Shown: one piece after another, positions 7,925 through 25,541 of the stretch
Numbering within the stretch: position 1 is the stretch's first letter
Layout of the letters: every line of letters starts with the position of its first letter
Assembly (NCBI GenBank): GCA_021654395.1
Contig: AP024486.1
Span: 360,001-392,000, forward strand
Length of the DNA: 32,000 bases
Origin: Candidatus Saccharimonadota bacterium
GTDB taxonomy: Archaea > Micrarchaeota > Micrarchaeia > Micrarchaeales > Micrarchaeaceae
Direction: 5' to 3'
Notes under the pieces: generated by a model
What the model was told of the DNA's origin: nothing
What the model saw: the letters and a program-made list of their open reading frames with translations, nothing else
Database searches by the model: none
Program-made: the position numbers and the translations under genes

Positions 7925-9007
7925 TCAGAACATCTTGTCTATCTCGTCTAGGCTCTTTATAGTATTATTTATGCTCTCTTCAGTCAGATCTGGGAAGTTA
8001 ACACCTGCTAATACTAATATTATCCTTATAGAGTCTTTCTGCAGATCTGTATCTATTCTAGCTCCAAACTTAAGCAGCGCATCCTTGCTTATTCTTGAGG
8101 ATATCTCTTGGACTATAGACTCTGCTTCTCTTAATGTTAAGCTTTCTCCTCCTATTATATGAACTAAAGCCTTCTTAGCAGTTGTTAGATCTATGTCAAG
8201 TAAAGGACTCTTTACAACATTATCTATTGCAAGCATTCCTCTATTTAGATTCTTGTTACTATTTGGAGTGCCCGGAGCATTATAAGCCTCTCCTATTCCT
8301 ATAACAGCATATCCTGCATCCTTAAGTACTGCCTTAAGATCTGCAAAGTCTATATTAACCATTCCTGGCTTTGTTATCATCTCTACAATACCTTTTGTTG
8401 CATTTGCTAATACCTCATCACATAGCCTAAATGCCATATTTAGTGGCATATCTCCGGCAAAGTTCAGAAGCTTATCATTCTTTATTATTATAGTTGCGTC
8501 AGCAACCTTTCTAAGCTTATTTAAGCCCTCTAACGCATTTTTCATCCTTGTCTTTCCTTCGCTAGAGAATGGCAGTGTTACAATGGCAGTTACTAAAGCT
8601 CCATTATCCTTTGCCTCCTTAGCTATTACGTGAGCCGATCCAGTACCAGTTCCGCCGCCTAAGCCACATGTTATAAATACCATCTGGGCATCTCTAAGGA
8701 GCTCTTTTATCTCGTCCTTGCTCTCCATTGCTGCCTCTTCTCCAACCTTCATATCACTACCAGCTCCAAGGCCTCTAGTTGACTTCTTTCCTAGTAGAAG
8801 CTTCTTATGCGCCTTTATCTTTAGAAGATGAGCAGCATCTGTATTCATAGCTATTAAAGTAGCGCCAGCGACACCTATATTATATAATCTATTAATAGTA
8901 TTACTACCACTACCACCAGCACCAACTATATATATCTTTGGCTTAGATCTCTCTATAAACTTAAGTAGCTCTTCGTCATCTGGAGAAAGATCTTGCATAC
9001 TAATCAT
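7925..9007 (-). CDS. ftsZ: Cell division GTPase FtsZ
   Basis: 360 aa. It has GAGGSGSNTINRL and the tubulin signature GLGGGTGTGSA, and the FtsZ layout is intact. The start may be the second Met (MISMQDL). Confidence 0.95.
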   Translation of the reverse strand: MISMQDLSPDDEELLKFIERSKPKIYIVGAGGSGSNTINRLYNIGVAGATLIAMNTDAAHLLKIKAHKKLLLGKKSTRGLGAGSDMKVGEEAAMESKDEIKELLRDAQMVFITCGLGGGTGTGSAHVIAKEAKDNGALVTAIVTLPFSSEGKTRMKNALEGLNKLRKVADATIIIKNDKLLNFAGDMPLNMAFRLCDEVLANATKGIVEMITKPGMVNIDFADLKAVLKDAGYAVIGIGEAYNAPGTPNSNKNLNRGMLAIDNVVKSPLLDIDLTTAKKALVHIIGGESLTLREAESIVQEISSRISKDALLKFGARIDTDLQKDSIRIILVLAGVNFPDLTEESINNTIKSLDEIDKMF

Positions 9008-9094: not shown

Positions 9095-9427
9095 ATGTCA
9101 GAAGAGGAGATCTCAGAGATAAATAAGGCAGAGAAAGAGGCAAGAGCTATAATAGAAGAAGCAGATAAAAAAGCGAAAGAGATATTAGATAAGGCAGAGA
9201 AAGAGGCAAGAGCTATAATAGAAGAAGCCCAGAGTAGCTCTAAGGAGCAATTTAGATCAGAGCTAGAAAGATTTAAGCAGAGCTCAGAGAGCTTTTATAG
9301 ATCAGAGCTCGAAAGCTTTAAAGAGAAGATGCAAAGCTTCAAGAGTGATTTTAAGATTAGCGATAAGGAGATGAAGGAGCTCCTAAGATCCATTGTAGAT
9401 AAGATTAACGATAGTATGAAGCGTTGA
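9095..9427 (+). CDS. atpH: A-type ATP synthase subunit H
   Basis: 110-aa charged helical protein, first gene of the atp operon. It contains internal duplications (see the repeat feature). Confidence 0.75.
   Translation: MSEEEISEINKAEKEARAIIEEADKKAKEILDKAEKEARAIIEEAQSSSKEQFRSELERFKQSSESFYRSELESFKEKMQSFKSDFKISDKEMKELLRSIVDKINDSMKR
9123..9228 (+). repeat. Perfect 40-nt direct repeat inside atpH (copies at 9123-9162 and 9189-9228)
   Basis: ataaggcagagaaagaggcaagagctataatagaagaagc occurs twice, 66 nt (22 codons) apart, encoding KAEKEARAIIEEA twice. A second, imperfect 27-nt duplication (aga tca gag ct. gaa ag. ttt aa.) lies at 9254 and 9299. Confidence 0.9.
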
Positions 9428-11358
9428 TATTGATGTTAAGATCTGAAGAGTGCGAGAAGGTCAGAATAATAGTAGAGAAGAAGGATTTAAACAAACTAGT
9501 ATCTGCTCTGCATGCTGTAGGAGTTTTAGATATCAGAGAGATTAGTATTAAGGATACTCAAAAGATCGATCTCAAGGATTATGAGAGTCTTGTTACAGAG
9601 CTCTCTATAAAGGTTAACTCCTTGCTCGATATTATAAAAGAGTCCTTCGGCTCAGATAAAGCCTTCAAGGCTTATATAAAGAAGCTCTATATAAAGTCAG
9701 AGGATCTTGATCTAAATGCTATAAAAAGTACATTAGATTCTATAAAGTTCACAAGGATCTTAAAAGACAAAGAGGAGTTAGAAGCAAACAAGGATGAGAT
9801 AAATAGATTAAAATCAATACTTCCTATATTAAAGACATTAAGTCAGTTCAAGATAGATGTTGCTGAGCTGAATAACAAAGCAGTATTGAATTATAAGCTT
9901 GTTGTGGTAGATAGGAGATACTTCTACGAGCTAAGAAACAGGCTGAGCAATATAAAGAATCTCGCTGCATATAATAAAGCTCTAGATAAGAATCATTATG
10001 CTTTACTGATAGCTTATAAGAAAGAGCTTGAGCAGGAGGTAGATGCTATACTAAATAGATATGATAAAAGAGAGCTATCTATAGATCTGCTTAACGGTTT
10101 TAGCGGCTCTCCGTACAGCGCATACAAGGAGCTACTGAGAAGGATAAGAGAGCTAGAGAGCAAGAACAAAGAGATAATAAGTAAAATAAAGAGATCTGCA
10201 GATACTACTGTAGATCAGCTTCTTATATTTAAGGAGATACTATCTATACATCAAGATAGAGTTAAGGCTATATCATTAATAGGATCAACAGAAAGCTTTG
10301 CTATAGTAGAGGGCTGGGTACCTGTAAGTAAGAGGCATATGCTAGTTAAGGAGCTTAATGATACTCTATACAAGAGATACAGCATAAGCAATATAAAGAC
10401 TGATGAGCTGCAGCCAACTGTATTAAGAAGGCCAGATATATTAAAGCCATTCGATTACTTCTTAAATCTATACTCTGTACCAAGAAGTGATGAGATAGAT
10501 CCTGGATGGATATTTATTGTATCTTTTATAATATTCTATGGAATGATGATAAGTGATGTAGGCTATGGGCTTGTCTCATTAGTAATAGCCTATCTAATAT
10601 CAAGAGTAACAGATAAAGAGGGCTTAATGCATAATGCAGCTAAGCTATGGATGATCTCTAGTATATCTGCAGTAGTATTTGGTTTGCTCTCTAATGAGTT
10701 CTTTGGATATCAGCTAAGCTTCCTTCCAACAGTTATAGACTGGACAAAGAACGTAATAACACTACTTGCTATAACAGTAATCTTTGGAGTAATACAGGTA
10801 TGCTTGGGCTTAGTCTTTGGATTTCTAAACAAGCTCAATGACTATAGAAAAGAGGCAGATAAGAAAGAGCTTATGGTTGCTATAAGCAAACTAACATCTA
10901 TACTAGTAATTGTATTTGGAGCGATAGCAGTCTCTGGCTATCTGTTTAATCTTATAAAAGGAGAGATAGTACTAATCTCTGCTATAATAGCAATAGTCTC
11001 AATAGTACTTACAGTTATTCTTGGAGGTATAGAGGGAGCAGAGGTAACAAACCTTATAACGCATCCTATAAGCTATGCTAGAATACTCGGATTCGGACTT
11101 GCAAGTATAATAATAGCAACGCTAATAGATAATGGATTTACTCCTGTATTATCTAAAGGCTTGCTATCTGTTGTAATATCTACTATAGTGCTTCTTCTAT
11201 TGCAGTTTCTTAATATAATACTTTCAATGCTTGAAGGCTTAATACAAGCAATGAGATTAAATTTTGTTGAGTTCTTTACAAAGTTCTATAAAGGAAATGG
11301 GGATCCTTACAAGCCATTTAAAGAGAAGAGAGTTTATACTTACAAGAGGGTGATATAG
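9424..11358 (+). CDS. atpI: A-type ATP synthase subunit I (membrane stator/a-subunit)
   Basis: 644 aa with a soluble N-terminal half, a multi-TM C-terminal half and the terminal RLNFVEFFTKFYKGNG..YKPF block. The TTG at 9424 overlaps the atpH stop; the ATG at 9433 is the more likely start. Confidence 0.9.
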   Translation: MILMLRSEECEKVRIIVEKKDLNKLVSALHAVGVLDIREISIKDTQKIDLKDYESLVTELSIKVNSLLDIIKESFGSDKAFKAYIKKLYIKSEDLDLNAIKSTLDSIKFTRILKDKEELEANKDEINRLKSILPILKTLSQFKIDVAELNNKAVLNYKLVVVDRRYFYELRNRLSNIKNLAAYNKALDKNHYALLIAYKKELEQEVDAILNRYDKRELSIDLLNGFSGSPYSAYKELLRRIRELESKNKEIISKIKRSADTTVDQLLIFKEILSIHQDRVKAISLIGSTESFAIVEGWVPVSKRHMLVKELNDTLYKRYSISNIKTDELQPTVLRRPDILKPFDYFLNLYSVPRSDEIDPGWIFIVSFIIFYGMMISDVGYGLVSLVIAYLISRVTDKEGLMHNAAKLWMISSISAVVFGLLSNEFFGYQLSFLPTVIDWTKNVITLLAITVIFGVIQVCLGLVFGFLNKLNDYRKEADKKELMVAISKLTSILVIVFGAIAVSGYLFNLIKGEIVLISAIIAIVSIVLTVILGGIEGAEVTNLITHPISYARILGFGLASIIIATLIDNGFTPVLSKGLLSVVISTIVLLLLQFLNIILSMLEGLIQAMRLNFVEFFTKFYKGNGDPYKPFKEKRVYTYKRVI

Positions 11359-11360
11359 AT

Positions 11361-11597
11361 ATGACTATAGATATAAATGCTGCTATTGCAGCGATAGGTG
11401 CAGGAATAGCTATAGCAGGAGGTGCGATAGGAACAGGTGTTGCTCAGTCAGCAATAGGTAGTGCAGGCCTTGGCCTTTATGCAGAGAATCCAAAGGACTT
11501 AGGAATAGCAATACTGTTCTTAGTACTTCCGGAAACACTAGTGATCTTCGGACTAGTAATAGCTATACTTATAATGCTAGCAGCAGGCCTAGTATGA
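11361..11597 (+). CDS. atpK: A-type ATP synthase subunit K (proteolipid c-subunit, single hairpin)
   Basis: 78 aa with a Gly/Ala-rich helix 1, the loop AENPK, and a helix 2 carrying the ion-binding Glu (LPETLVIFGLV). GGGTGAT Shine-Dalgarno-like motif upstream. Confidence 0.9.
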   Translation: MTIDINAAIAAIGAGIAIAGGAIGTGVAQSAIGSAGLGLYAENPKDLGIAILFLVLPETLVIFGLVIAILIMLAAGLV

Positions 11598-11602
11598 TGT
11601 AG

Positions 11603-12202
11603 ATGGCCTTAGGAGATCTAAAAGATTCATTAATAAATGAAGCAAGAAAGCAGGCCTCTGCAAAGATAGCAGAGGCGAATAGTAAAGCAAAGGCGATAGT
11701 AGAGGATGCAAAGAAAGAAGCAGATAGAATAAAAGAGGAGAATAATAGAAAGATAAGCAGCGAGAAGGATCTAATAGAGAAGGAGATGAGAGCGAGTACA
11801 GATATAGAGAAGAAGCTAATTAAGCTAAATACAGTTCAAGAGATCGCAGATAGCTACCTAGATGAGATAAAGAAGGAGCTAAAAGAGAGCTTAGAGAGCA
11901 AAGATCTTCTAACAGCTATAGTAGATAAGGCATTATCTTATATAAAGAGCAACCTACAAGACAGAGATATAGTACTATATGCTGGAGCTAAAACTCAGAA
12001 GCTGATACCAAAGAGCAAGGGTATTAAGGTAAAGAAGATGGATGAGGAAGGAGTTATAATAACAGATGAGTCAGATAGCTTCAAGATAGATCTCTCAGTA
12101 AAGAGCTTAATAGAAAGGAATAGCAGGTTAATAAGATCAGAGCTTATAAGGTTTATAAGAGAGAAGCTTAATGATATAGATGAGCAAGGTAAGAAGGTAT
12201 AG
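11603..12202 (+). CDS. atpE: A-type ATP synthase subunit E
   Basis: 199 aa with a long charged N-terminal helix and a globular C-terminus. Operon position between K and C. Confidence 0.8.
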   Translation: MALGDLKDSLINEARKQASAKIAEANSKAKAIVEDAKKEADRIKEENNRKISSEKDLIEKEMRASTDIEKKLIKLNTVQEIADSYLDEIKKELKESLESKDLLTAIVDKALSYIKSNLQDRDIVLYAGAKTQKLIPKSKGIKVKKMDEEGVIITDESDSFKIDLSVKSLIERNSRLIRSELIRFIREKLNDIDEQGKKV

Positions 12203-13202
12203 CTACTCAAATGCGAGAGCTAAGAGGCTATATGCTGAGCTGCTAAAGCCTTCTCAGCTAGAGGAGATAATGCATCTTAAGGATGTAAGCTCTATACTTA
12301 ATTACATATACAAGACAAGCTACTCTAAGTATATAGATGCAGCAGCATCAAGAGTAAATCAGGATGATAAGCTTGCGTTAATAGATTATGCAGTCTCATT
12401 ATCAATATCAGATGCATATAGGAAGCTAAGAGCAGCGCTGCCTATAGATATACTAGATCAGTACTATATAATCTTTGATAAGCCAGATATAGATAATATC
12501 TCCTTAATGATCTCATCTAAGCTATACGGTATAGATAGCTCGATTGTTTTAAGAAGGATTATAGAAACGAGAAATATAAAGATGGAGCTTGTAAGGCAGA
12601 TTATAAACGAGAGCAACGTAAGCTCATTAATAAGAAGATTAAAAGAGAGCATAAATGACAGATTTGTATTAAGGATATTAGATAGCATAAGTAATAAGCA
12701 GGATGTATTGATAGCAGATCAGCTAGATAGCTATTACTATAAGGAGCTCTCTAAGCTGATAGTAAGAGCGAAGAGTGAGGATCTTGATACTGCTAAGCTG
12801 ATAAAGTATATGCTAGAGGCTTATAATATAAGGATTCTAATAAGATCAAAGCTATACCATATAAGTCAAGAGCTTATAAGCAGCTTATTAATACAGAATG
12901 CTATAACTAAAGGAGATTCATTGAATAGATTGATAGCAGCAGATAGCATTAAGCAGCTAGTAAGCAACATAAGGAGCATCGATCTAACAAAGGCCTTAGA
13001 GAGCTATGAGAAGGAGAATAAGCTATATCCCTTTGAGGTTGGTATAGACAGATACATCTTTGACAAGATAGATAAGATACTAAGAGTAAAGGTCTTTTCA
13101 TTATCAACTATAGTTGGATACTTAACATTAAAGGAGTATGAGACAGCATTATTAAGATATGCTATAGGAAGTAAGATATATAATATAGCTGAGCAGATAT
13201 GA
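12180..13202 (+). CDS. atpC: A-type ATP synthase subunit C
   Basis: 340 aa with the N-terminal YSYSNARAKRL motif typical of subunit C (d-subunit family). It overlaps atpE by 23 nt. Confidence 0.85.
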   Translation: MSKVRRYSYSNARAKRLYAELLKPSQLEEIMHLKDVSSILNYIYKTSYSKYIDAAASRVNQDDKLALIDYAVSLSISDAYRKLRAALPIDILDQYYIIFDKPDIDNISLMISSKLYGIDSSIVLRRIIETRNIKMELVRQIINESNVSSLIRRLKESINDRFVLRILDSISNKQDVLIADQLDSYYYKELSKLIVRAKSEDLDTAKLIKYMLEAYNIRILIRSKLYHISQELISSLLIQNAITKGDSLNRLIAADSIKQLVSNIRSIDLTKALESYEKENKLYPFEVGIDRYIFDKIDKILRVKVFSLSTIVGYLTLKEYETALLRYAIGSKIYNIAEQI

Positions 13203-13531
13203 ATGGTAGAATAGCAGTTATAGGGGATAAGATAATGGTAGATGGATTCATGAGTATCGGAATAAAGGATACATTCCAGATAGATAACGATAAGCAGCTT
13301 AAGGATGCATTAGATTCAGTTATAAAGAACAACGAGATCGCATTAGTTATAATACAAGAGTCACTAGTAGACAGACTTAATCAGAGAGATAGGGATAATA
13401 TACAGAAGAGCGTTAGGCCATTATTTATAGAGATTCCTGGATTTAATGAGAAAGAGGTTCATACAGAGAGATTGAGAGATCTTATACTTAGAGCATTAGG
13501 TATAGATATATCTAATAGATACAAGATATAG
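13199..13531 (+). CDS. atpF: A-type ATP synthase subunit F
   Basis: 110 aa with RIAVIGDKIMVDGFMSIGI, typical of subunit F. ATGA overlap with atpC. Confidence 0.85.
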   Translation: MNGRIAVIGDKIMVDGFMSIGIKDTFQIDNDKQLKDALDSVIKNNEIALVIIQESLVDRLNQRDRDNIQKSVRPLFIEIPGFNEKEVHTERLRDLILRALGIDISNRYKI

Positions 13532-13543
13532 AAGGTGTTAAAT

Positions 13544-15298
13544 ATGGGATACATATATAGAATATCTGGCCCTCTGGTAATAGCAGAGGATATGAGAGGA
13601 AGCAAGATGTATGATGTTGTAAGAGTTGGAGATGAAGGATTAATAGGAGAGATTATTAGGTTAAATGGTAGCAGAGCAACTATACAGGTATATGAGGATA
13701 CAACAGGATTAAAGCCCAAGGAGCCAGTAAGATCTACGAATAAGCCTTTATCTATTGAAGCAGGTCCTGGGATGCTTACTCATATCTTTGATGGACTACA
13801 AAGGCCCTTAGATCATATCTTTGAGCTTCTTGGTCCATTTATAAAGAGAGGTGTAGAGGAGCCTGCATTAGATAGAAAGAAGGAATGGGAGTTTATAAAG
13901 CTGGATAGCATAAAGAAGAAAGATAAGCTTAGTGAGATGCAGATTATAGGATACGTTCAAGAGACACCATTAATAAAGCATTATATAATGCTTCCTCCTG
14001 GAGTTAGGGGAACTCTAACAGAGATAAATGAAGGCAAGTTTACAGTAGAGGATACAATAGCAGTTGTTGAGAGCAATGGAAAGAAAGAGGAGATAAAGCT
14101 TATGCACTATAGGCCTGTAAGAAAGCAATCTCCATATAAAGAGAGAGTTAAGGTATTGGAGCCGATGCTTACAGGTCAGAGGGTCATAGATACATTCTTC
14201 CCAATACTAAAAGGAGGAACTGCTGCTATACCGGGTCCATTCGGATCTGGAAAGACAGTAACACAGCATCAGCTAGCTAAGTTCTCAGATGCTAATATCG
14301 TTGTTTATATAGGCTGTGGAGAGAGAGGCAATGAGATGACAGAGGTACTAACAGAGTTTCCAGAGCTAACAGATCCACATACAGGAAGGCCACTACTAGA
14401 GAGAACCGTAATGATAGCAAATACTAGCAACATGCCAGTAGCTGCGAGAGAAGCGAGTATATATACAGGAGTTGCGATAGCAGAGTACTTTAGAGATATG
14501 GGCTACTCCATAGCATTGATGGCGGACTCAACATCAAGATGGGCAGAGGCGATGAGAGAGATATCAGCAAGATTAGAAGAGATGCCAGGAGAAGAGGGAT
14601 ATCCAGCATATCTGCCAAAGAGATTAGCAGAGTTCTATGAAAGGGCAGGAAGATTTGTAAATCTTAATAATACAAGCGGAAGTATATCTATAATAGGAGC
14701 AGTATCACCACCAGGTGGAGATATATCTGAGCCAGTGTCTCAAGCAACATTAAGAGTAGTTAAGGCATACTGGGGCTTAGATGCATCCTTAGCAAATGCT
14801 AGACATTTTCCAGCAATCAACTGGTTAACAAGTTACTCTCTATATGCAGCAGATCTAAGAGAATGGTTTAATACAAATGTTGCAGAAGACTTCTCAGTAA
14901 ATAGAGATGCTGCACTAGAGATACTCCAGAAGGAGAAGGAGCTAAAGGATATAGCTCAACTAGTAGGAGTAGATGCCTTACCAGAGGATCAGAAGCTTCT
15001 ATTAGAGATTGGTAAGATGATAAGAGAGGACTTTTTAAGGCAGAATGCATTTGATCCAATAGACCAGTACTCAACAATAAAGAAGCAGTATCTAATGCTA
15101 AAGATTATAATGGCATTCTATAAGCTAGCAAGAGATGCAGTAAGCAGCGGAGTTAGCGTAGATTCATTAGTCAAGAGCAATGTAAGAGCAGAGATATCAA
15201 GAATGAAAGAGGTTAAGAATGAAGACTTTGAGAGCTTCTATAATAGTATAATAGAGAAGATGAATAACGAGATCGCTTCTATTAAGGCCAAGATATAA
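13544..15298 (+). CDS. atpA: A-type ATP synthase catalytic subunit A
   Basis: The ORF is open from GTG 13535. The ATG at 13544 follows a GGTG motif. It has [12 protein letters not shown], Walker [25 protein letters not shown] and [10 protein letters not shown]. The length is normal, so there is no intein. Confidence 0.96.
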
Positions 15299-15300
15299 GG

Positions 15301-16683
15301 ATGATATATATGATAGAGAGAGAGTATAAAACTATAAAAGAGGTGTATGGTCCTTTAGTGGTGGTAGATAAGATAAATGATGCTCAGTATAATGAGATCG
15401 TAAGAATAAATGTAAATGGAGAGGAGAGGCTAGGTCAAGTAATAGATACAACAAGTGACTTTGCAGTAGTTGAGATATTCGGTGATAATACAGGCTTAGA
15501 TATAGAAAGCTCAAGCGTAAGCTTTACTGGAGAGCCTCTACTATTCGGAGTCTCAGAGGATATGCTTGGAAGGATATTCAATGGAAGAGGAGAGCCGATA
15601 GATGCAAAGGTCGATTATCTTGTAAGAGAGAAAAGAGATATAAATCAAACAATAATAAATCCTGCAGCAAGAGCGATGCCTAACGATTTCATTGAAACAG
15701 GAATATCAACAATAGACGCGTTAATAACACTAGTAAGAGGTCAGAAGCTGCCAATCTTTGCTGCATCAGGACTAAGATATAATGATCTTGCTGCTCAGAT
15801 AACTAGACAAGCAAAGGTGTTGCATAAAGACATAGAGTTTGCTGTTGTATTTGCTGGAATAGGAATAACTCATGATGATGCTCAATTCTTCATAGACTCA
15901 TTCAGAAAGACAGGTGCATTAAGTAGAGCAGTTGCATTTATAAATACAGCAGACGATCCAAGCATAGAGAGAATACTAACACCAAGATTAGCTTTAACAA
16001 CAGCAGAGTATCTAGCATTTGATCATGGAATGGATGTTCTAGTAATAATGACTGATATGACTAACTACTGCGAAGCTTTAAGAGAGCTATCAAGCGCAAG
16101 AGATGAGGTACCTGGAAGAAGAGGATATCCAGGATATATGTATACAGATCTTGCAACATTATATGAGAGAGCAGGTCTTATAAAAGGAAAGAATGGAAGT
16201 ATAACTCAATTAGATATACTAACAATGCCAAATGATGATATAACACATCCTATTCCGGACTTAACAGGATATATAACAGAAGGACAGATATATATGAGCA
16301 GAGATCTTGCAAACAAAGGAATATATCCACCAATAAATCCATTGCTATCATTATCGAGACTGATGAATAATGGAATAGGAGAAGGAAAGACAAGAGCAGA
16401 CCACAGAGGAGTCGCCGATCAGCTCTTTGGATCTTATGCAAGATCTATAGATGTAAGGAATATGAGCACTATAATAGGTCAGGATGCATTATCAGATATA
16501 GATAAAAAGTATCTTGCATTTGGAGATGCATTTGAGAAGAGATTTATAAATCAAGGATTATATGAAGATAGATCTATAGAGGAGACATTAAGTATAGGCT
16601 GGGATCTATTATCTATGCTACCAGAGACAGAGCTTATAAGAATAAAGACAGAGTTTATAAAGAAGTACTATAAGAAGAGCTGA
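15301..16683 (+). CDS. atpB: A-type ATP synthase subunit B
   Basis: 460 aa with [37 protein letters not shown] and the [20 protein letters not shown] blocks. Confidence 0.96.
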
Positions 16684-16688
16684 TTATA

Positions 16689-17306
16689 ATGCCTGATGTA
16701 AAGCCTACTAGAATAAATCTGATAAACATAAAGAACTACATAAAGATAGTCAAGAATGGATACTCGATACTAAAAAGAAAGAGAGAGAGCTTAGTAATAG
16801 AGTTTATGAAGATATTAAAGGAGGAGTCTTACTCTAGAGCAGATCTATACAATATATTGCAGAGCGCTTATAGAACAGCAGCATTTAGTATATCTTACTA
16901 TGGAGAGCAGAATGTACTTAGAGTCGCATCTTATATAAGCAACAAGTATACTCTAAGTATAGACTCGAAGAATATAATGGGTGTAAAGATACCTCTACTG
17001 CAAGGAGAGATAGAGCTTTCATCATCATTATTAACATCTAGGCTATTCTTTGATGATATATTCAACAACTTCAGCAAATCTTTAGATATGCTTATAAAGA
17101 TTGCAAAGAAGGAGGAGAGCTTAGTCAGATTAGTTAATGAGATAGACAAGACTAAGCGCAGAGTAAACGCTCTTGAGTATATACATATACCTAAGCTACA
17201 GCAGCAAGCGAACTATATAAAGACAGTACTAGCAGAGCAAGAGAGAGATATGTTCTCTTCATTAAAGCATGTTAAGAAGAAGATAGCATCATCAAGCAGA
17301 TACTGA
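16689..17306 (+). CDS. atpD: A-type ATP synthase subunit D (central stalk)
   Basis: 205 aa with KPTRINLINIK...GYSILKRKRESLVIEF, typical of subunit D. Last gene of the operon. Confidence 0.88.
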   Translation: MPDVKPTRINLINIKNYIKIVKNGYSILKRKRESLVIEFMKILKEESYSRADLYNILQSAYRTAAFSISYYGEQNVLRVASYISNKYTLSIDSKNIMGVKIPLLQGEIELSSSLLTSRLFFDDIFNNFSKSLDMLIKIAKKEESLVRLVNEIDKTKRRVNALEYIHIPKLQQQANYIKTVLAEQERDMFSSLKHVKKKIASSSRY

Positions 17307-20727: not shown

Positions 20728-21213
20728 ATGGCAGATATAGAGATTGTAGATGTTAAAAAGGAGAAGGATGAGCAGGTAATATTAGGGCATGCTGCATTCA
20801 TAAAGACAGTAGAGGATCTATACGAAGCAGTCTACTCATCAGTTCCTGGAGTACAGTTTGGTATAGCATTTAGTGAAGCTAGCGGCGATAGACTCATAAG
20901 AACAGAAGGCAACAATAAGGAGCTAATCAGTAAGGCAGCAGATCTACTAATGAAGCTTTCAGCAGGGCATACATTTGCTATATTCTTCAAGAATGCGTAT
21001 CCGATAAATATTCTGAATAGTGTAAAGGCGCTGCCAGAGGTGTCTAGAATATACTGCGCGACAGGCAATCCATTAAAGGTCGTTATACTAAAGGATCAGC
21101 AAGGCAACTCAGTAATAGGAGTAATAGACGGCATGTCTCCTTTAGGAGTAGAAGATGAGAGCAAGAAAAAAGAGAGGAAGGATCTAATAAGGAAGTTAGG
21201 ATATAAGCTCTAA
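20728..21213 (+). CDS. Conserved archaeal ~160-aa protein of the 'adenosine-specific kinase' family (assignment from memory of the family pattern)
   Basis: 161 aa. GHAAFIKTVEDLYEA...FGIAFSEASGDRLIRTEGNN...AGHTFAIFFKNAYPINILNSVK..PEVSRIYCATGNP matches my recollection of this family's conserved blocks. Function is uncertain. Confidence 0.55.
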   Translation: MADIEIVDVKKEKDEQVILGHAAFIKTVEDLYEAVYSSVPGVQFGIAFSEASGDRLIRTEGNNKELISKAADLLMKLSAGHTFAIFFKNAYPINILNSVKALPEVSRIYCATGNPLKVVILKDQQGNSVIGVIDGMSPLGVEDESKKKERKDLIRKLGYKL

Positions 21214-21627
21214 ATCAAGATATGCTATCTTAGTAATACCATTAGCTATACTAAATATAAATTCTTCATTAGAGTTTATGAGCTCCTTTATATAAATATA
21301 ATCTAGAGTAGCTAAGACTCTAGATCCATTGAAGTACTGGCTTATAGATGCATCTAGATCTGGATCTCTATAAAGTCTATACTTTAGAATTAGCTTCTCT
21401 AATGCTATATCTGCTGCATCATCGTATATCTTATACATAAATACCGTCTTATCTCTCTCCTCGCAGTTAATTATAGATAGAGCTAAGCTGTTGATATCTG
21501 TCTTTACTAGATCTATATAAGAGATATCTATGCTTATAGATCTATCATTTCGTAATCTCTTAGCTAGATATATAATTGCTAGTGCTATAGTAGCAGATAT
21601 TATCAAGTAGTACTGCATATATCTCAC
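21196..21627 (-). CDS. ORFan, N-terminally membrane-anchored protein; last gene of the VirB4-like operon
   Basis: 143 aa. The GTG start overlaps the upstream stop (GTGA); the ATG at 21618 is an alternative start. One N-terminal TM (YYLIISATIALAIIYLA) followed by a ~115-aa domain with no recognisable motif. Confidence 0.55.
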   Translation of the reverse strand: MRYMQYYLIISATIALAIIYLAKRLRNDRSISIDISYIDLVKTDINSLALSIINCEERDKTVFMYKIYDDAADIALEKLILKYRLYRDPDLDASISQYFNGSRVLATLDYIYIKELINSNEEFIFSIANGITKIAYLDLELIS

Positions 21628-22154
21628 TGATCTAAGCCATGCTTCTTAAGTAGTAATGCAACAGTATCAGAAGGGATAATAGCTCTAAGATCTTTAAGAA
21701 GCTCATTATATCTATTAATCATATCTCTATCCTTTGCTATCTGCTCCTTCATAGCCTTATTAGAATCTTTAAGCTTTACTATAAAGCTCTCTAATATCTC
21801 TATCCTTGATATTATATAATACCTATACGCATTTTCATCTGCTTTATTAATAAAGCTTATATCTGATATACTAAATAGAAGTCTAATCAGCTCCGGTATT
21901 ATACTGCTATATGCAATATCTGCTATAGGATCTATCCTATATAGAACAAATAGCAGATTCATATAAGCCTTTATCTTGCTATTAAGATCGCTGCCTTTCT
22001 CTAGAGCTATTATTCTGTCTTTATATATCTTTATAATAGATTCTTTGTATGATATACTTATACAGTTATTCTCTATAGATGGCTTAATATCCTTTAATCT
22101 ATTATAAGCTAGATCAAGATCTTTTATCTTAATCTCAAGATTTATAGCGATCAT
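21624..22154 (-). CDS. ORFan soluble protein with a helical C-terminus; fifth gene of the VirB4-like operon
   Basis: 176 aa. Its ATG overlaps the ATPase stop (ATGA). No TM segment. The C-terminal KDSNKAMKEQIAKDRDMINRYNELLKDL looks coiled-coil. Confidence 0.55.
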   Translation of the reverse strand: MIAINLEIKIKDLDLAYNRLKDIKPSIENNCISISYKESIIKIYKDRIIALEKGSDLNSKIKAYMNLLFVLYRIDPIADIAYSSIIPELIRLLFSISDISFINKADENAYRYYIISRIEILESFIVKLKDSNKAMKEQIAKDRDMINRYNELLKDLRAIIPSDTVALLLKKHGLDQ

Positions 22155-23344
22155 AGAAGCTCAGCTATATAGCTATCATCTAATCCGATCTCCTTTAGTA
22201 ATGCTATACTCTCAACTCTCCTTATCTCATAAGGCATTATCTTTAATAGCTGTTCTATGCCTATATAGCTGCCTGCTGCAGCCGCATCTTGAAGAAGCTT
22301 ATCTATATCATCTTCAGATACGCCTAGCTCTAGAAGTCTTCTCTTTAATCTATCTATACTATATCTTAAGATCATATCTCTCGCCTCTATAATAAGTGTA
22401 TCATTGTTATAAACATTTAGCTGACTATCTACTAATGCAGTGCTAATACCTCCTACCTTATTACTTACTAATATAAACCTGCCTCTATGCAGCTTATTCA
22501 GCTCTTTGCTTATATTACTATTCAATATCTTCTCTATTGTTTCTATATCAGTATTTGATTGAAGCTTAAATAGAATAATAGTTGCAGCATTCGCTATCAG
22601 CTCCTTAATAGAATCATTTAGTAGCTGCGTACTTACTATAACTCCTATACCTCGCTTCCTTCCCTCTCTTATCAGCTTAAGTATATCTATACTATAGCTT
22701 ATAAGCTTCCATGCCTCATCTATAACAATGAATCTAAAAGGTTCTTTTCTATAAGCTCTTCTATATAGCTCTTTATTCTCTAACCATATATAAGACTCTA
22801 ATATGGCTCTTACTTTAAGATCATCTAAGCCGTTTAATGAGATATAAATACTATCATTTAAAAGATCTATACGCTCTCTAATGCATCTGGCATCATTAAG
22901 CTTCTGAATATAACTTAAAGCCTCAGATCCTAGCTTATCTCTAATATAATGAGATAGCTCCTCTATGCTATATCTATATGAGATATAGCTTATAATATTA
23001 CAAGGATCTATTATCTCTAAGCCGTAAAGCCTTGCGATATCTTTATACTCATCAGACCAATCAACTATAGCTATACTTATATCATTTATGCTCATTGCTT
23101 TAGATATTATATTCTTAACTAAGAAAGTCTTTCCAGAGCCACTCATGCCAGCTATAAGTATATGACCATTGCTCAGCTCTTTAAGATCTAGAGTAATAAC
23201 AGATCTGTATGCTCCTGATAAGCCTAATACTATAGAGCTCTTTATATCAATATTACTGCATGACCTTAGATCTGGCTTAAATATAGGAAGTGCTTTGGAG
23301 ATCTGTGATATATTATACAGATTCTCTAGCTTAATAGCTATCAC
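22151..23344 (-). CDS. FtsK/HerA/VirB4-superfamily P-loop ATPase (CedB/VirB4 C-terminal-domain-like)
   Basis: 397 aa with a GTG start. It has Walker A HILIAGMSGSGKTF (nt 23126-23149), Walker B FRFIVIDEAW (nt 22709-22729) and REGRKRGIGVIVSTQLLND (nt 22625-22669). The DEAW and RK..TQ combination is typical of VirB4/TrbE and HerA-clade translocases. Confidence 0.8.
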   Translation of the reverse strand: MIAIKLENLYNISQISKALPIFKPDLRSCSNIDIKSSIVLGLSGAYRSVITLDLKELSNGHILIAGMSGSGKTFLVKNIISKAMSINDISIAIVDWSDEYKDIARLYGLEIIDPCNIISYISYRYSIEELSHYIRDKLGSEALSYIQKLNDARCIRERIDLLNDSIYISLNGLDDLKVRAILESYIWLENKELYRRAYRKEPFRFIVIDEAWKLISYSIDILKLIREGRKRGIGVIVSTQLLNDSIKELIANAATIILFKLQSNTDIETIEKILNSNISKELNKLHRGRFILVSNKVGGISTALVDSQLNVYNNDTLIIEARDMILRYSIDRLKRRLLELGVSEDDIDKLLQDAAAAGSYIGIEQLLKIMPYEIRRVESIALLKEIGLDDSYIAELL

Positions 23345-24059
23345 CCAGATAATCTATATATAAGAATCTTTCAAGATTGCTTCCATTTAAGAGCCTATAT
23401 CCAGATTGAGCTATAGTAGCCAATCTTTCAGAGATCATCTTTAAGTCATCCATAGCCGTCCTCTTTGCTTCGCTTAAGCTATCTGATATGCATGTAGCGC
23501 TTATGTAGTAGTATAATCCAAATGTATTTATGCTATCTATTCTAGATATCTCCTTAGAGATAGTATCTATCTTACTTTGCACTGCTGCTATCTTAGCTGG
23601 AGAAGCCCTCTCACTAACAAGCCTAGTTAGCTGTATCTCATATAGCGCCTTCCTTGTTTTTAGGTCTTCTATAAGCCTAGAAAGATCGATTCTCTTTATA
23701 ATGCAGCTTATCTTTATACTAGATCTAAGATCCTTTATAGCAGACTCTAGCTCTCTGTAATCTATCTCTCTATTTGGAGTATAGAGCTCAGCTATAGCAG
23801 TACATATATAACCTACTTTACTATATCTTACTATTATATCTCTACTGCTAAGTATCTGCATATCATCTATAACTCTTATAACCTTAGCTCTCTTAATCAG
23901 TATCTCTATTAATAGATCATAAGATCTGTATAGAGTGATTAGGATAGTAATTAATATCAATGAAGCAAGTATGAAGTAAGGCTTATAGAAGATAGCTGCC
24001 GCTATAAGAGTAGAAGAGGCAGATATAATAGAAATATAATAAGATAGCTCATGTCTCAT
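23331..24059 (-). CDS. Membrane-anchored protein (N-terminal TM hairpin plus soluble domain); candidate VirB3/VirB4-N-terminal-domain equivalent
   Basis: 242 aa. Two adjacent TM helices span about residues 7-44, followed by a soluble alpha/beta-looking region (ILSSRDIIVRYSKVGYICTAIAELY...FGLYYYISATCISDSLSEAKRTAMDDL). It overlaps the ATPase gene by 14 nt. Confidence 0.55.
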   Translation of the reverse strand: MRHELSYYISIISASSTLIAAAIFYKPYFILASLILITILITLYRSYDLLIEILIKRAKVIRVIDDMQILSSRDIIVRYSKVGYICTAIAELYTPNREIDYRELESAIKDLRSSIKISCIIKRIDLSRLIEDLKTRKALYEIQLTRLVSERASPAKIAAVQSKIDTISKEISRIDSINTFGLYYYISATCISDSLSEAKRTAMDDLKMISERLATIAQSGYRLLNGSNLERFLYIDYLGDSY

Positions 24060-24060
24060 A

Positions 24061-25062
24061 CTATGCGCCTAATCTATAAAGATTTATATCAAAGCCACCA
24101 AGCAGCTTAGATAGGTATCTAAAAGCGCTTAGGCTTATAATAAGATTTATAGTAGGCATAACGAATACTTGAAAGATTACATCTGCTATATAGCTGTATA
24201 TCTGATTCATATAGCTGTATATCTCATTAGATAGCGACTCAACATAAGCCTGCAGATAAGAGGCAGCAGTCGGACTATTACTACCTATATAAGAGTATAT
24301 AGTATCTGCAGAATTAGCATAATAGCTTATATTCTGCGTTAATATGAAGCTCTGCTCATTGTATATATAAAGATCTAGGATATAAAGGCTTGACATTATA
24401 ATTGAGAATGCTATAACTGCAGATATTATAACTGAGCCTATCGCTCTTAAAGGATATATTGATCTAAGGATAACGCCAATACTTAATAGCAATGGAGATA
24501 TAGTTGTAATATAGAGTATTACTGTATACTGAATATATATCGACAATAGTGAGAAGTAAAGCAGATCGATAAGCTCAGACAAGCTACTTATTATTGGCTT
24601 CATTATATAGTATAGATCTACCTGCACAACGAACAGATTTATAGTTAGATCACCTATTGCGGATACTGCTATATATAATCCATACATCTCAAATAGGAAG
24701 CTATTTACAGAATCTGCGAGTGTTGGCTCATATCTTCCATTATAATATATATAATTATTCCCAGCAAGGAATGCAGTTGCGATACATGAGAAGATATCAT
24801 ATGATACAGATTCAGGGCAGCTATATCTTGTGCTATTGATAAAGCTACCATCTAAGCTACTATATATAAAGCTGTTAGAGTAGAGTATTGCGTAAGTAAG
24901 CCATAGTAAAAGAAGACTTACTATGATATCTGAGGCGAAGCTCCTTGCGATAGCTTTAAGTTTATAATCATTCAAGGCATATGCGATAGCGTTTATAATA
25001 CCAAATGATATTAGCATTATCTCATTAGTTATTAATACAGTCTGAATTAGATAGCCAAGCAT
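24061..25062 (-). CDS. Polytopic integral membrane protein (about 6-8 TM); candidate VirB6/CedA-like channel component
   Basis: 333 aa with many hydrophobic helices, one loop carrying two Cys, and a Tyr/Ser-rich loop with three IYSY motifs. Two of these are encoded by a perfect 16-nt direct repeat at 24188-24203 and 24209-24224. Confidence 0.6.
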   Translation of the reverse strand: MLGYLIQTVLITNEIMLISFGIINAIAYALNDYKLKAIARSFASDIIVSLLLLWLTYAILYSNSFIYSSLDGSFINSTRYSCPESVSYDIFSCIATAFLAGNNYIYYNGRYEPTLADSVNSFLFEMYGLYIAVSAIGDLTINLFVVQVDLYYIMKPIISSLSELIDLLYFSLLSIYIQYTVILYITTISPLLLSIGVILRSIYPLRAIGSVIISAVIAFSIIMSSLYILDLYIYNEQSFILTQNISYYANSADTIYSYIGSNSPTAASYLQAYVESLSNEIYSYMNQIYSYIADVIFQVFVMPTINLIISLSAFRYLSKLLGGFDINLYRLGA

Positions 25063-25067
25063 CTAGC

Positions 25068-25370
25068 TCAGCTACTGCTGTTTGTTGTATTTAATATAAG
25101 ATGCGCTGCAGCATTTGTTATACTATCTGCAGTTAGGCTTAGTATCGCTAGTATTATAGCTCCTATTATTATATTGATAGCAGTGCTTTGAAATCTAGCT
25201 CTCTTGTCATAAGGCATTATCTGTCCTATTGCGTAGAATATTCCCGCTAGTATAAATAGAGCGCTGCTTAGGATCGGGCCTGCCTGCTGTAGTACTGCCT
25301 TTATATAGACTAGCAGATTTATTATACCTATAGACAGATAGATATACTTGTTTTCGTTCATATATATCAT
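25068..25370 (-). CDS. Small hydrophobic protein; candidate VirB2/CedA1-like pilin (leader plus helix-basic loop-helix)
   Basis: 100 aa. An N-terminal hydrophobic segment (YIYLSIGIINLLVYI) ends ...AVLQQAG. Two further hydrophobic helices are joined by the basic loop PYDKRARFQ. The C-terminal tail LNTTNSSS carries N-x-S/T sequons. First gene of the operon. Confidence 0.5.
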   Translation of the reverse strand: MIYMNENKYIYLSIGIINLLVYIKAVLQQAGPILSSALFILAGIFYAIGQIMPYDKRARFQSTAINIIIGAIILAILSLTADSITNAAAHLILNTTNSSS

Positions 25371-25541
25371 AGTATAATTTTATTTACTTAACTAAAAGAA
25401 ATTTAATTAAAGTAAATTTTAAATATTTAACTATAAGAATAAGTTATAGAGTATAAGAATATTTAGCAGATTTAAGATAGAATATTATAAAGTGTAGAGC
25501 TGGAGAATAAGATATTTATTTAATAGATATAATCTATAATT
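25371..25541. promoter_or_regulatory. Divergent AT-rich promoter region between the VirB4-like operon (-) and the NAD-kinase-like gene (+), with a 10-bp direct repeat
   Basis: 171-bp intergenic region. TATAAGAATA occurs at 25432-25441 and 25452-25461, 20 bp apart. There are several TATA-like runs on both strands. Confidence 0.5.

Follow-up and report, generated by a model that had tools for sequence, protein, structure and literature searches.

A conserved chromosomal gene cluster of Micrarchaeota encoding a candidate Ced-like translocation apparatus with a predicted split ATPase

Results

Structure of the cluster

We analysed a 32,000-nucleotide window of the genome of ARM-1 (Ca. Microcaldus variisymbioticus), a tiny symbiotic DPANN archaeon of the phylum Micrarchaeota. 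It contains six minus-strand ORFs, ARM1_0414 to ARM1_0409, all six annotated in GenBank as hypothetical proteins. The first gene, g1 (ARM1_0414, 25068..25370), encodes a small two-helix hydrophobic protein of 100 aa in the ORF list, a candidate VirB2/CedA1-type pilin. It is followed by g2 (ARM1_0413, 24061..25062), encoding a polytopic membrane protein of 333 aa, a candidate CedA/VirB6-type channel, and by g3 (ARM1_0412, 23331..24059), whose 242-aa product combines a TM hairpin at its N-terminus with a helical domain on the cytoplasmic side. The product of g4 (ARM1_0411, 22151..23344, GTG start) is a 397-aa P-loop ATPase of the FtsK-HerA superfamily. The last two genes, g5 (ARM1_0410, 21624..22154) and g6 (ARM1_0409, 21196..21627, GTG start), encode a soluble, helix-rich protein of 176 aa and a 143-aa protein with a single N-terminal TM anchor.

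From g1 to g6, neighbouring genes are separated by 5 nt and 1 nt at the first two junctions and overlap at the other three, by 14 nt, by ATGA and by GTGA. This spacing suggests translational coupling of the six genes. The ORF list gives the same coordinates, lengths and junctions as the original prediction. The GTGA overlap between g5 and g6 depends on the choice of the start codon, as the GenBank starts of ARM1_0414 and ARM1_0409 lie three codons further in, yielding proteins of 97 and 140 aa, respectively. The only sizeable non-coding gap adjoining the cluster in the ORF list is the AT-rich region of 171 nt between g1 and a divergent 253-aa gene (25371..25541), presumably the promoter region of the operon.

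We calculated the number of stop-free runs of a given length expected by chance in the window at 33% GC. It is 8e-3 for runs of at least 176 codons, 6e-5 for 242 codons and below 1e-7 for 333 and 397 codons, and a chance origin of the larger ORFs is excluded. For 100 codons the expectation is 2.5, but among the genes of the cluster g1 is conserved best, with 33-53% identity to 13 Micrarchaeota homologs. The least secure gene is g6, since 0.1 chance ORFs of 143 codons are expected in the window. Hydropathy profiles agree with the membrane topologies proposed earlier: two strong hydrophobic helices and an N-terminal hydrophobic stretch in g1, approximately six to seven hydrophobic helices in g2, an N-terminal hairpin in g3, one N-terminal anchor in g6, and no hydrophobic helices in g4 and g5.

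Conservation

Homologs of g1, g2, g3 and g4 stand in the same order in 17 Micrarchaeota loci (L001, L003-L009, L011-L015, L017-L019, L028), with BLASTP E-values from 1e-15 to 1e-27. The gene order is kept across Micrarchaeota, and of the proposed six-gene unit four genes are conserved, whereas relatives of g5 and g6 could not be detected. For g5, no homolog was observed in 87 related loci, and there was no Pfam, NCBIfam or PHROG match below E 0.003. Its position elsewhere in Micrarchaeota is occupied by a conserved protein of 175-240 aa, whose family gives 3% in hhalign against g5. Similarly, g6 has no homolog in the related loci and no family match in Pfam, NCBIfam or PHROG. Judging by these searches, g5 is specific to the ARM-1 lineage and g6 is also lineage-specific. 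ARM-1 lacks a second P-loop protein (637-778 aa), which 9 of the 13 examined loci of the compact type encode downstream. The immediate neighbour of the cluster is a housekeeping-type gene (PAE2307 family), and FtsZ is encoded approximately 12 kb away. The organism had been described as an archaeon outside the lineage in which Ced was defined, which is borne out, with the correction that it is a DPANN micrarchaeote.

A predicted split ATPase

The motifs GMSGSGKT (Walker A), VIDEAW (Walker B) and REGRKRGIGVIVSTQ are all present in the 397-aa translation of g4, as originally predicted, and a small helical domain, approximately 70 aa long, forms the C-terminal end of the protein. In Pfam it matches DUF87 (7.6e-11) and AAA_10 (1.6e-6), and in NCBIfam VirB4_plasma (1e-14), CD1110 VirB4 (1e-11) and CedB (7e-8). 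The best NCBIfam matches over 21 members of the g4 family are CedB (7.5e-21), HerA_antiphage (7.5e-20), CedD (1.3e-18) and TraC (1.3e-17), all scores of g4 being far under the curated cutoffs, e.g. 31.5 bits vs 700 for CedB. For the stand-alone family, HerA_antiphage scores nearly as high as CedB. The AF2 model of g4 (pLDDT 76) matches DndH-C, HerA, FtsK and VirB4 equally in Foldseek (TM 0.45-0.5), and the modelled ATPase core is indistinguishable from HerA, FtsK or DndH by structure.

The product of g3 has no direct match in Pfam or NCBIfam. It is linked by phmmer to its homologs from L013 (2.2e-8), L028 (6.1e-8) and L001 (8.4e-5), and these stand-alone proteins yield matches in the N-terminal region of the CedB model of NCBIfam. 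The best match is that of the L028 protein (2.5e-9, residues 10-195 on model positions 5-186), followed by L001 (9.4e-5) and L013 (1.3e-4). CedB is matched by 5 of the 30 members of the g3 family, and together the stand-alone homologs cover model positions 5-217.

Natural fusions of g3 and g4 were found in L053, L058 and L060, where the g3 HMM matches residues 5-264 and the g4 HMM residues 274-667. The fusions match CedB over positions 56-587 of 590 with E-values of 5e-39 to 8e-40, vs approximately 1e-13 for HerA models, which upholds the assignment of the ATPase to the VirB4 class. The genes g3 and g4 are homologous to both halves of CedB. This was not part of the original prediction, where the 242-aa protein was considered a possible additional unknown family. 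Instead, g3 is probably the detached N-terminal (TM plus NTD) half, and g4 the C-terminal motor half, of a split CedB/VirB4-type ATPase. The C-terminal extension of CedB-like fusion relatives resembles, by eye, a wHTH followed by a PD-(D/E)xK motif.

Membrane proteins

Local BLASTP alignments of g1 with its homologs have 48-59% identity. The conserved core, IGPxLSAxLFIxAGIFYAxGQxxPxDKRAxF, is followed by the second hydrophobic helix. Most homologs have, by eye, a Sec-type signal peptide at the N-terminus, which is absent in ARM-1, L001 and L028. The top and only relevant PDB match of the family profile is TrwL, the VirB2 pilin of R388, across the helix-loop-helix, with E 0.29, not significant alone. 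The product of g1 itself matches the conjugation TM protein pLS20_p028 of NCBIfam with E 0.0078. In a scan of 72 members of the g1 and g2 families, pLS20_p028 was matched by seven proteins (best E 3.2e-5), CedA1 by two, and Mbov_0395 pilin-like and TcpD by one each. The g1 HMM also matches the N-termini of g2 paralogs (1.8e-4 and 1.5e-3), which thus carry a g1-like module. The same relationship has been reported for CedA1/CedA and VirB2/VirB6 (PMC9905601).

The g2 family has 50 representatives among 1.84 billion proteins, and almost all full-length ones are 315-358 aa long. It is characterised by the motif LRxFYxTRxLGG, which has the form ILRSIYPLRAIGS at residues 198-210 of the window protein, and by a second, C-terminal segment similar to SIRELAxxLGS. 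The AF2 model (pLDDT 84, pTM 0.79) contains three helices of 52-57 residues. The g2 protein has no Pfam or NCBIfam match. At the profile level, its family is linked by hhalign to the membrane proteins encoded beside the CedB-like fusion genes (78.7%, E 1.7e-5, 152 columns), and the motif R-x-x-x-x-x-R-x-L-G is common to both groups. As to the channel, an HMM search gives the L061 ORF with 1.2e-5. In the scan of 72 members, CedA (3.8e-28) and CedE (2.6e-19) were matched by two members each, those matching CedA probably being the L060 and L061 ORFs. BFVD contains no match to the g2 model, and in PDB Foldseek yields no significant one, TrwI/VirB6 having the highest TM listed (0.30/0.35) with E 2.3.

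A local match to an ABC exporter weakens when a better profile is used, from 1.4e-6 to 8e-3, its TM-scores are 0.1-0.2, and this candidate was rejected. In addition, 26 and 30 members of the membrane-protein families have no match in Pfam, and by these searches the membrane proteins are not ordinary transporters. Neither g1, g2 nor g3 of the window has a significant direct match to any Ced or VirB model of Pfam or NCBIfam, and the links run via relatives and profiles. For the VirB6-like assignment of g2, the moderate profile link stands, while a significant fold match to solved VirB6 does not. TrwL as sole relevant PDB match points to a VirB2-like g1, but weakly, and both assignments should be read as weak to moderate at the profile level.

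Discussion

The compact, divergent VirB2/VirB6/VirB4-class (Ced/Ted-like) apparatus proposed originally is upheld by all three comparisons that could have overturned it, those of the ATPase, the membrane proteins and the gene order. We consider it likely that the cluster encodes a chromosomal, T4SS-derived, Ced-like envelope-spanning translocation apparatus conserved across the phylum Micrarchaeota.

An integrated conjugative plasmid or ICE of the archaeal MPF-FATA or pNOB8 type, of which the cluster would be a remnant or a still active module instead of a host-domesticated system, is very unlikely. The top single-protein matches of g4 in NCBIfam are indeed ICE and plasmid VirB4 models, and g1 matches a protein of plasmid pLS20. 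However, the four-gene core occurs in loci whose flanking genes vary from genome to genome, and the homologs have diverged to 25-30% identity, which suggests that the phylum inherited the core vertically. Further, the GC content is even across the region, none of the six proteins has an integrase domain in Pfam or NCBIfam, and no tRNA gene adjoins the cluster, the nearest one being approximately 2.9 kb away. Tblastn against 50,697 phage records yielded no match, and plasmid matches are weak and partial, none exceeding 40% identity or 75% coverage. By these sequence criteria, the cluster does not appear to be a mobile element. The same empty phage search argues against a provirus-derived genome-packaging module, consisting of an FtsK/HerA-type packaging ATPase and viral membrane proteins, as do the retention of the cluster phylum-wide in a chromosomal context, the g2 model unmatched in BFVD and a neighbourhood free of capsid and other viral genes. 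This explanation is extremely improbable, although the PHROG family phrog_2666 (terminase large subunit) scores 1.4e-17 and the packaging ATPase B204 of STIV is matched by sequence (3.5e-4) and by Foldseek (TMt 0.67).

A membrane-tethered HerA-type helicase system that acts in DNA repair or in defence against viruses and is unrelated to secretion would agree with DUF87, the HerA central domain, as the best Pfam match of g4, with the HerA_antiphage score across its family, and with DndH-C, HerA and Sir2-HerA complexes as its top Foldseek matches. However, g4 cannot contain a HerA HAS-barrel domain, because only approximately 55 residues precede its P-loop. Moreover, the operon encodes no NurA, Sir2, DUF4297 or other effector or nuclease domain recognisable by Pfam or NCBIfam, polytopic and pilin-like partners are kept in the cluster, g3 shares homology with the N-terminal region of CedB, and for the fusions CedB is a far better match than HerA. 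The repair or defence reading is thus not supported and highly improbable, and the ATPase belongs neither with HerA-NurA nor with defence HerA proteins.

The cargo of the same apparatus could be other than DNA: it might assemble a filament for adhesion or contact, or transfer proteins, lipids or metabolites between symbiont and host. In Pfam and NCBIfam, the six proteins have no DNA-binding or DNA-processing function, and a relaxase, a nuclease, ParA and a recognisable coupling protein are all missing from the operon. Biosynthesis of amino acids, nucleotides and cofactors is lacking in ARM-1, which depends on its host as the source of most building blocks (PMC8784108). A role in contact or transfer of this kind has been proposed for the T4SS of epibiotic Patescibacteria. 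Their epibiotic growth requires T4SSs (PMC12857230). On the other hand, the CedB-like fusion relatives carry the putative wHTH and PD-(D/E)xK extension, and FtsK-HerA motors of the CedB-like clade are typically nucleic-acid pumps. The nearest characterised relatives, CedB, CedA, CedD and CedE, are DNA importers (PMC11868833). We regard a non-DNA cargo as possible but unlikely.

In the Ced-like apparatus, g4 would form a hexameric FtsK-HerA-type motor at the cytoplasmic face, tethered to the membrane by g3, the TM hairpin and N-terminal domain of their common CedB/VirB4-type ancestor. The CedA/VirB6-like g2, with long helices projecting from the membrane, may serve as a channel or an assembly platform. 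Extracted from the membrane, the two-helix, VirB2/CedA1-like g1 would polymerise to form a filament or conduit of the conjugative type, and g5 and g6 may be lineage-specific accessories. Formation of a filament or pilus, the direction of transport and a DNA cargo are what we infer for this apparatus. By analogy with Ced, the cargo is most likely DNA that ARM-1, itself devoid of nucleotide biosynthesis, would take up from neighbouring (host) cells.

We found no published description of this cluster. Its phylum-wide conservation makes it a concrete candidate for uptake of DNA or other large molecules by host-dependent Micrarchaeota cells. The data support its distant relationship, with rearrangement, to the Ced DNA-import system of archaea and to the bacterial conjugation machinery.

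The cluster and its chromosomal surroundings

Six co-directional minus-strand ORFs were reproduced at window positions 21196-25370; they encode proteins of 100, 333, 242, 397, 176 and 143 aa, named here g1 to g6 in this order. All junctions claimed in the original prediction (a 5-nt gap, a 1-nt gap, a 14-nt overlap, and ATGA and GTGA overlaps) are seen in the ORF listing, the Walker A, Walker B and arginine-rich motifs ascribed to the 397-aa protein g4 are present, and the proposed topologies agree with the hydropathy of the six proteins. At 100% identity, g4 and g2 correspond to ARM1_0411 and ARM1_0413 of 'Candidatus Micrarchaeota archaeon' ARM-1; the remaining proteins g1, g3, g5 and g6 are ARM1_0414, 0412, 0410 and 0409. 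GenBank annotates all six as hypothetical, and scans of the window proteins against Pfam, NCBIfam and PHROG produced real matches for the ATPase g4 only.

The GenBank starts of ARM1_0414 and ARM1_0409 lie three codons downstream, so that the two proteins shorten from 100 to 97 aa and from 143 to 140 aa (alternative start codons at 25361-25370 and 21619-21627, respectively). The GTGA overlap therefore depends on the choice of start codon, and the GenBank start puts a few bases between g5 and g6. In this window of 33% GC, the chance expectation of stop-free runs is 8e-3 for at least 176 codons and below 1e-4 for at least 242 codons. For ORFs as short as g6 (143 codons) and g1 (100 codons) it is 0.1 and 2.5, and these two are not secured by length itself; homologs of g1 were found at 33-53% identity.

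ARM-1, or Ca. Microcaldus variisymbioticus, is a cultivated thermoacidophilic DPANN ectosymbiont of Sulfolobales, with a complete genome of 814,439 bp that lacks amino acid, nucleotide and cofactor biosynthesis (PMC8784108). The surroundings of the cluster look like core chromosome. The ftsZ gene of what had been described as an AT-rich archaeon with FtsZ was indeed found at 7925-9007 (E 1e-103 to M. jannaschii FtsZ). A block of nine plus-strand ORFs at 9095-17306, divergent from the adjoining ftsZ, has ORF sizes that fit an A-type ATP synthase operon. Immediately downstream of the operon lies a convergent gene of the PAE2307/ST1511 family (20728-21213; E 1e-52 to solved structures). The 3' ends of this gene and of the operon share 18 nt (21196-21213), leaving no space for a terminator between them. 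The GC content is uniform across the window, and no tRNA adjoining the cluster was found in it.

Conservation in Micrarchaeota

Neighbourhoods of ATPase homologs and 80 metagenomic loci were searched using iterated HMMs seeded from the window proteins. A g1-like gene, a polytopic protein of about 340 aa, a protein of about 240 aa and the ATPase are collinear in 17 Micrarchaeota loci (L001, L003-L009, L011-L015, L017-L019, L028), with direct BLASTP E-values of 1e-15 to 1e-27. The best conserved gene of the cluster is g1. No homologs of g5 and g6 were detectable in related loci by iterated HMM searches or by comparison of positional families, and the idea that they are counterparts of the positional families of other Micrarchaeota was rejected, as this comparison showed no relationship. 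Since relatives carry other genes in these positions, the conserved unit consists of four genes, g1 to g4. Thus the gene order proposed for all six genes is kept in relatives for the first four, and not for g5 and g6.

Downstream of the ATPase, most relatives contain a conserved protein of 175-240 aa and more small ORFs. They also have a second P-loop protein, soluble and 637-778 aa long, that is absent from the ARM-1 window. The forms of about 700-780 aa were found at L003:9215-11551, L005:8961-11225, L007:9052-11265, L009:4909-7083, L012:9690-11879, L018:9453-11564 and L019:4678-6897; those in L001 and L028 are shorter (693 and 637 aa) and have hydrophobic stretches near both ends. This protein is a distant relative of g4 with a weak Pfam match to Zot/HerA_C and no match to VirD4 models. 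Its interpretation as a CedD analogue was rejected: it has no TM segment, no g3-like part and no CedD match.

An expanded form of the cluster occurs in nine loci of other Micrarchaeota (L021, L023, L033, L041, L044, L045, L047, L048, L055; e.g. L021:242-8801). Here g2 is represented by three to four paralogs in tandem (350-527 aa) and g3 by two (about 275 aa, also in tandem); the ATPase is about 505 aa long, and the C-terminal helical domain of g4 is matched by an ORF of its own, of about 100 aa. GenBank lists two expanded-family ATPases (P0106 and P0107) under bacterial MAGs (Baltobacteraceae, Acidoferrales); they fall into a 90%-identity cluster with Micrarchaeota entries and L055:6779-8425, and probably come from mis-binned Micrarchaeota contigs.

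A scan of 1.84 billion representative proteins produced only 50 clusters of g2 homologs, the full-length members being almost all 315-358 aa, and hence the g2 family is small and lineage-restricted. A homolog search with g2 alone, or with a concatenated g1+g2+g3 profile, retrieved only the query itself and a single homolog with an insertion; the prefilter was probably swamped by hydrophobic words. The g2 homolog P0044 (766 aa, Candidatus Anstonellales archaeon) matches the family at residues 46-270 and 722-761, with an insertion of about 450 residues between the two parts.

The split ATPase

The g4 protein is an ATPase of the FtsK-HerA superfamily, and a finer placement from g4 alone is impossible. 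In Pfam it matches the central DUF87/HerA domain; in NCBIfam it matches VirB4-type ICE models, HerA_antiphage, TraC and CedB, all far below cutoff (31.5 bits on CedB, NF041017, with an equivalog cutoff of 700 bits; 30.4 bits on VirB4_CagE, TIGR00929, with a cutoff of 643). When 21 members of the g4 family were compared with NCBIfam, CedB (7.5e-21), HerA_antiphage (7.5e-20), CedD and TraC were nearly tied. A Foldseek search with the g4 model (pLDDT 76) is uninformative within the superfamily, as DndH-C, HerA, FtsK and VirB4 all match equally at TM 0.45-0.5. An N-terminal HAS-barrel was not found in g4, which has only about 55 residues ahead of its P-loop.

In three loci g3 and g4 are fused into one protein of 886-901 aa (L058:1032-3692, L060:5420-8113, L053:430-3135). 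The fusions match the NCBIfam CedB model in one stretch covering positions 56-587 of 590 (E 5e-39 to 8e-40). Some stand-alone g3 proteins match the N-terminal part of the same model: that of L028 at 2.5e-9 (residues 10-195 on model positions 5-186), those of L001 and L013 at 9.4e-5 and 1.3e-4. Altogether 5 of the 30 members of the g3 family match CedB, and these relatives span model positions 5-217. All three named proteins are of the compact type, and the expanded-type g3 paralogs were rejected as CedB matchers. In turn, single-sequence phmmer with the window g3 retrieves L028 at 6e-8, L001 at 8e-5 and L013 at 2e-8. Comparison of the g3 profile with PDB produced coiled-coil noise only.

Hydropathy of g3 reveals a TM hairpin, followed by a cytoplasmic domain. 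CedB and CedD consist of a TM part, an N-terminal domain and a HerA/VirB4-like ATPase, their N-terminal domains being structurally homologous to parts of that of VirB4 (PMC11868833), and g3 and g4 taken together have this CedB architecture. Because the fusions, the stand-alone g3 proteins and the window g3 form a chain leading to the CedB model, we conclude from sequence comparison that a CedB/VirB4-type ATPase is split here into g3 (TM hairpin and cytoplasmic domain) and g4 (the motor). The best fusions reach 130-137 bits on CedB, below the equivalog cutoff, and therefore the ATPase is a homolog of CedB and not an ortholog-level member. The PF03135 domain (CagE_TrbE_VirB) was not found by Pfam in g3, g4 or the fusions.

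This kinship removes the main objection foreseen in the original prediction, namely that the ATPase might belong with HerA-NurA repair helicases or defence HerA proteins: the fusions match CedB at about 1e-39 and HerA models at about 1e-13, and g3 matches the CedB N-terminus.

The fusions also have a C-terminal extension of about 250 aa, in which a winged-helix-like segment and a PD-(D/E)xK-like motif (DVLVDGRLAVEVETGESD) can be seen by eye, hinting at a possible role in DNA processing. Upstream of the fusions there is a trio of genes encoding a small (84 aa), a polytopic (about 290 aa) and another small (about 69 aa) protein.

The membrane proteins g2 and g1

The polytopic protein g2 has no match in Pfam or NCBIfam, and its 26 relatives are also without Pfam matches, TrbL/VirB6 included. 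An AF2 model built with representatives from the 1.84-billion-protein scan (pLDDT 84, pTM 0.79) contains three helices of 52-57 residues, which must project beyond the membrane. Neither PDB nor BFVD gave a significant Foldseek match to this model; TrwI/VirB6 of R388 (8rt9_F, 8rtd_L) has the top TM-scores in the list (0.30/0.35), but with E 2.3-3.2 this is no evidence. The possibility that g2 is an ABC-exporter TM domain was rejected, as the initial match at 1.4e-6 weakened to 8e-3 with a 40-sequence profile and the TM-scores are 0.1-0.2. This match stands among coiled-coil and haemagglutinin matches and is treated as local similarity between long helices.

When 72 members of the g1 and g2 families were compared with NCBIfam, two matched CedA (NF041796) at 3.8e-28 and its paralog CedE at 2.6e-19. 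We infer that these are the 286- and 293-aa ORFs of L060 and L061, both of which were recruited by the iterated g2 search. The former is directly upstream of the CedB-like fusion gene, and the latter precedes a partial ATPase match. By hhalign, the compact g2 family aligns with these two ORFs (78.7% probability, E 1.7e-5, 152 columns), the alignment spanning the signature LRxFYxTRxLGG (PFRxGRxLGS in the L060 and L061 ORFs) and the C-terminal ...LAxxLGS. An HMM made from the representatives of the 1.84-billion-protein scan only retrieves the L061 ORF at 1.2e-5. It is likely but not proven that g2 is a homolog of the CedA/VirB6 class.

The core of the g1 family consists of two hydrophobic helices with a P-x-D-K-R-A loop between them; VirB2/TrbC-type pilins have a comparable layout of signal peptide, two hydrophobic helices and basic loop. 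Like TedC and VirB2, most homologs carry an N-terminal Sec-type signal peptide; it is absent in ARM-1, L001 and L028. Among 177,635 PDB sequences the g1 profile has a single relevant match, to the VirB2 pilin TrwL of R388, covering both helices (E 0.29). In NCBIfam, seven members of the g1 family match the pLS20 conjugation TM protein (best 3.2e-5), and in the scan of both families two members match CedA1 (NF041797) at 7.6e-4, one matches a mycoplasma ICE pilin-like protein and one TcpD. With the g1 HMM, the N-terminal region of g2 paralogs is retrieved as well (1.8e-4, 1.5e-3); the same relationship between the small protein and the channel N-terminus was reported for CedA1/CedA and VirB2/VirB6 (PMC9905601). 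Each of these items is weak, and all of them together point the same way, weakly suggesting a VirB2/CedA1-like protein. Two hhalign comparisons, of g1 with g2 (14%, E 0.002) and of g1 with the small proteins beside the CedA-like genes (2.4%), were too weak and were not used. A tiny 65-aa ORF downstream of the ATPase (L003:8801-8998, also in L004) is weakly matched by the g1 HMM (E 2.6e-3); it may encode a second, minor pilin-like subunit analogous to CedA2.

Possible function

The best-supported reading of the cluster is a Ced-like, T4SS-derived envelope machine. Hexamers of g4 would be held by g3 beneath a channel or platform formed by g2, and g1 would polymerise into a conjugative-type filament or conduit, with g5 and g6 as accessories specific to ARM-1. 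The most likely activity would be uptake of DNA from host cells, suggested by analogy with Ced (PMC11868833, PMC9905601) and by the lack of nucleotide synthesis in ARM-1 (PMC8784108). The predicted divergent apparatus of the Ced/T4SS class outside the lineage in which Ced was defined is supported by the CedB homology of g3 and g4 in a DPANN micrarchaeote.

The main rival is that the machine carries cargo other than DNA or makes a purely adhesive filament; the same genes would be involved, and we regard this as fairly unlikely. An integrated conjugative element is very unlikely and is contradicted by specific results, among them the uniform GC content and flanking genes that differ between the Micrarchaeota loci. 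A HerA repair or defence system is highly improbable and is contradicted by the CedB kinship of the fusions and of g3; nuclease or effector domains (NurA, Sir2, DUF4297, other) were not recognised in the six proteins by Pfam or NCBIfam. A provirus packaging module, in which g4 would be the packaging motor, is scarcely credible, again being contradicted by specific results. As to its origin, a recent gift from the Sulfolobales host was rejected, since the cluster occurs throughout the phylum, in Micrarchaeota of many habitats, and resembles Ced only marginally.

A Ced-like machine would bear on the routes by which DPANN archaea acquire DNA, nucleotides and further building blocks from host cells. 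At the contact site of ARM-1 with its host, structures have been imaged (PMC11329633). The cluster could encode the symbiont side of the host-symbiont connection imaged by cryo-ET in the ARM-1 co-culture, importing host DNA or nucleotides; this link to the cryo-ET structures is speculative and we consider it rather improbable. In epibiotic Patescibacteria, growth on the host requires a T4SS (PMC12857230). If the link held, DPANN archaea would have in a domesticated T4SS an organelle that is phylum-wide and essential for symbiosis, paralleling that of the Patescibacteria.

A full-text search found no published account of Micrarchaeota with a Ced-like or T4SS-like system, and neither of the two ARM-1 papers speaks of secretion ATPases, pilins or Ced. 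Among DPANN, the closest precedent is the VirB4/TraG-like domain in giant nanohaloarchaeal proteins. Domesticated T4SS of the Ced/Ted type are extended by the cluster beyond Thermoproteota into DPANN, and ARM1_0411 to ARM1_0414 are four conserved candidate genes in a cultivated system tractable by cryo-ET. The split of a VirB4/CedB-type ATPase into N-terminal domain and motor could inform the docking of such ATPases on the channel.

Comparison with known systems

The Ced system is characterised by the CedA1 pilin in a lipid-containing pilus of the conjugative type and by DNA-damage-inducible import of chromosomal DNA between cells. Ced of Sulfolobales and Desulfurococcales (CedA, CedA1, CedA2, CedB, and the newer CedD and CedE) parallels the cluster in its parts list: a small membrane protein of two helices, a polytopic protein (the channel in Ced, a likely counterpart in the cluster) and an ATPase of HerA/VirB4-like type anchored in the membrane. 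Both are chromosomal and not on a mobile element, and CedA1, like the ARM-1 g1, has no cleavable signal peptide (PMC9905601). However, the ARM-1 ATPase is split in two genes, all genes of the cluster are in a single operon, whereas cedB is apart from cedA in Sulfolobus, and the cluster contains two additional ORFans, g5 and g6. The similarity is marginal, with no CedA1 or CedA match for the window g1 and g2, and ARM-1 is a DPANN symbiont and not a crenarchaeote.

Ted of Thermoproteales (TedC pilin, TedA, TedB), the components of which have no BLAST-level similarity to Ced (PMC9905601), is likewise a minimal VirB2/VirB6/VirB4-like trio on an archaeal chromosome. TedC resembles most Micrarchaeota homologs of g1 in having a signal peptide of the signal peptidase I type. 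On the other hand, the VirB4-like protein TedB is in one piece, and the ParA/VirC1-like, Rad50-like and HerA-like genes of Ted loci are missing from the cluster; this comparison follows published descriptions of Ted.

The core of conjugative T4SS (VirB2, VirB3, VirB4, VirB6) shares with the cluster an ATPase from the same branch of the FtsK-HerA superfamily, and the combination of a TM hairpin with a VirB4 N-terminal region in g3 recalls the common VirB3-VirB4 arrangement. However, Pfam CagE_TrbE_VirB, TrbL/VirB6 and VirB2 have no match in the cluster, and VirD4, relaxase, VirB8 and VirB1 were not recognised among the six operon proteins by Pfam or NCBIfam. The T4SS of Patescibacteria is similar in its setting, a reduced-genome episymbiont (PMC12102498, PMC12857230). 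SPEARE-type proteins of Nanohaloarchaeota represent another DPANN lineage in which a VirB4-class ATPase was proposed to act in host interaction, but there the VirB4/TraG-like ATPase is part of a giant surface protein, in fusion with Ig-like repeats; the neighbour is a full-length VirB4 with the PF03135 N-terminal domain, and no g1-g2-g3-g4 operon was described (PMC10266531).

The cluster could not be assigned to any Ced, Ted or VirB family model at the ortholog level, as all scores are far below curated cutoffs. By this comparison it would work like Ced or Ted, and differs from them in the split ATPase, the single operon, membrane protein families outside existing models, and the DPANN host.
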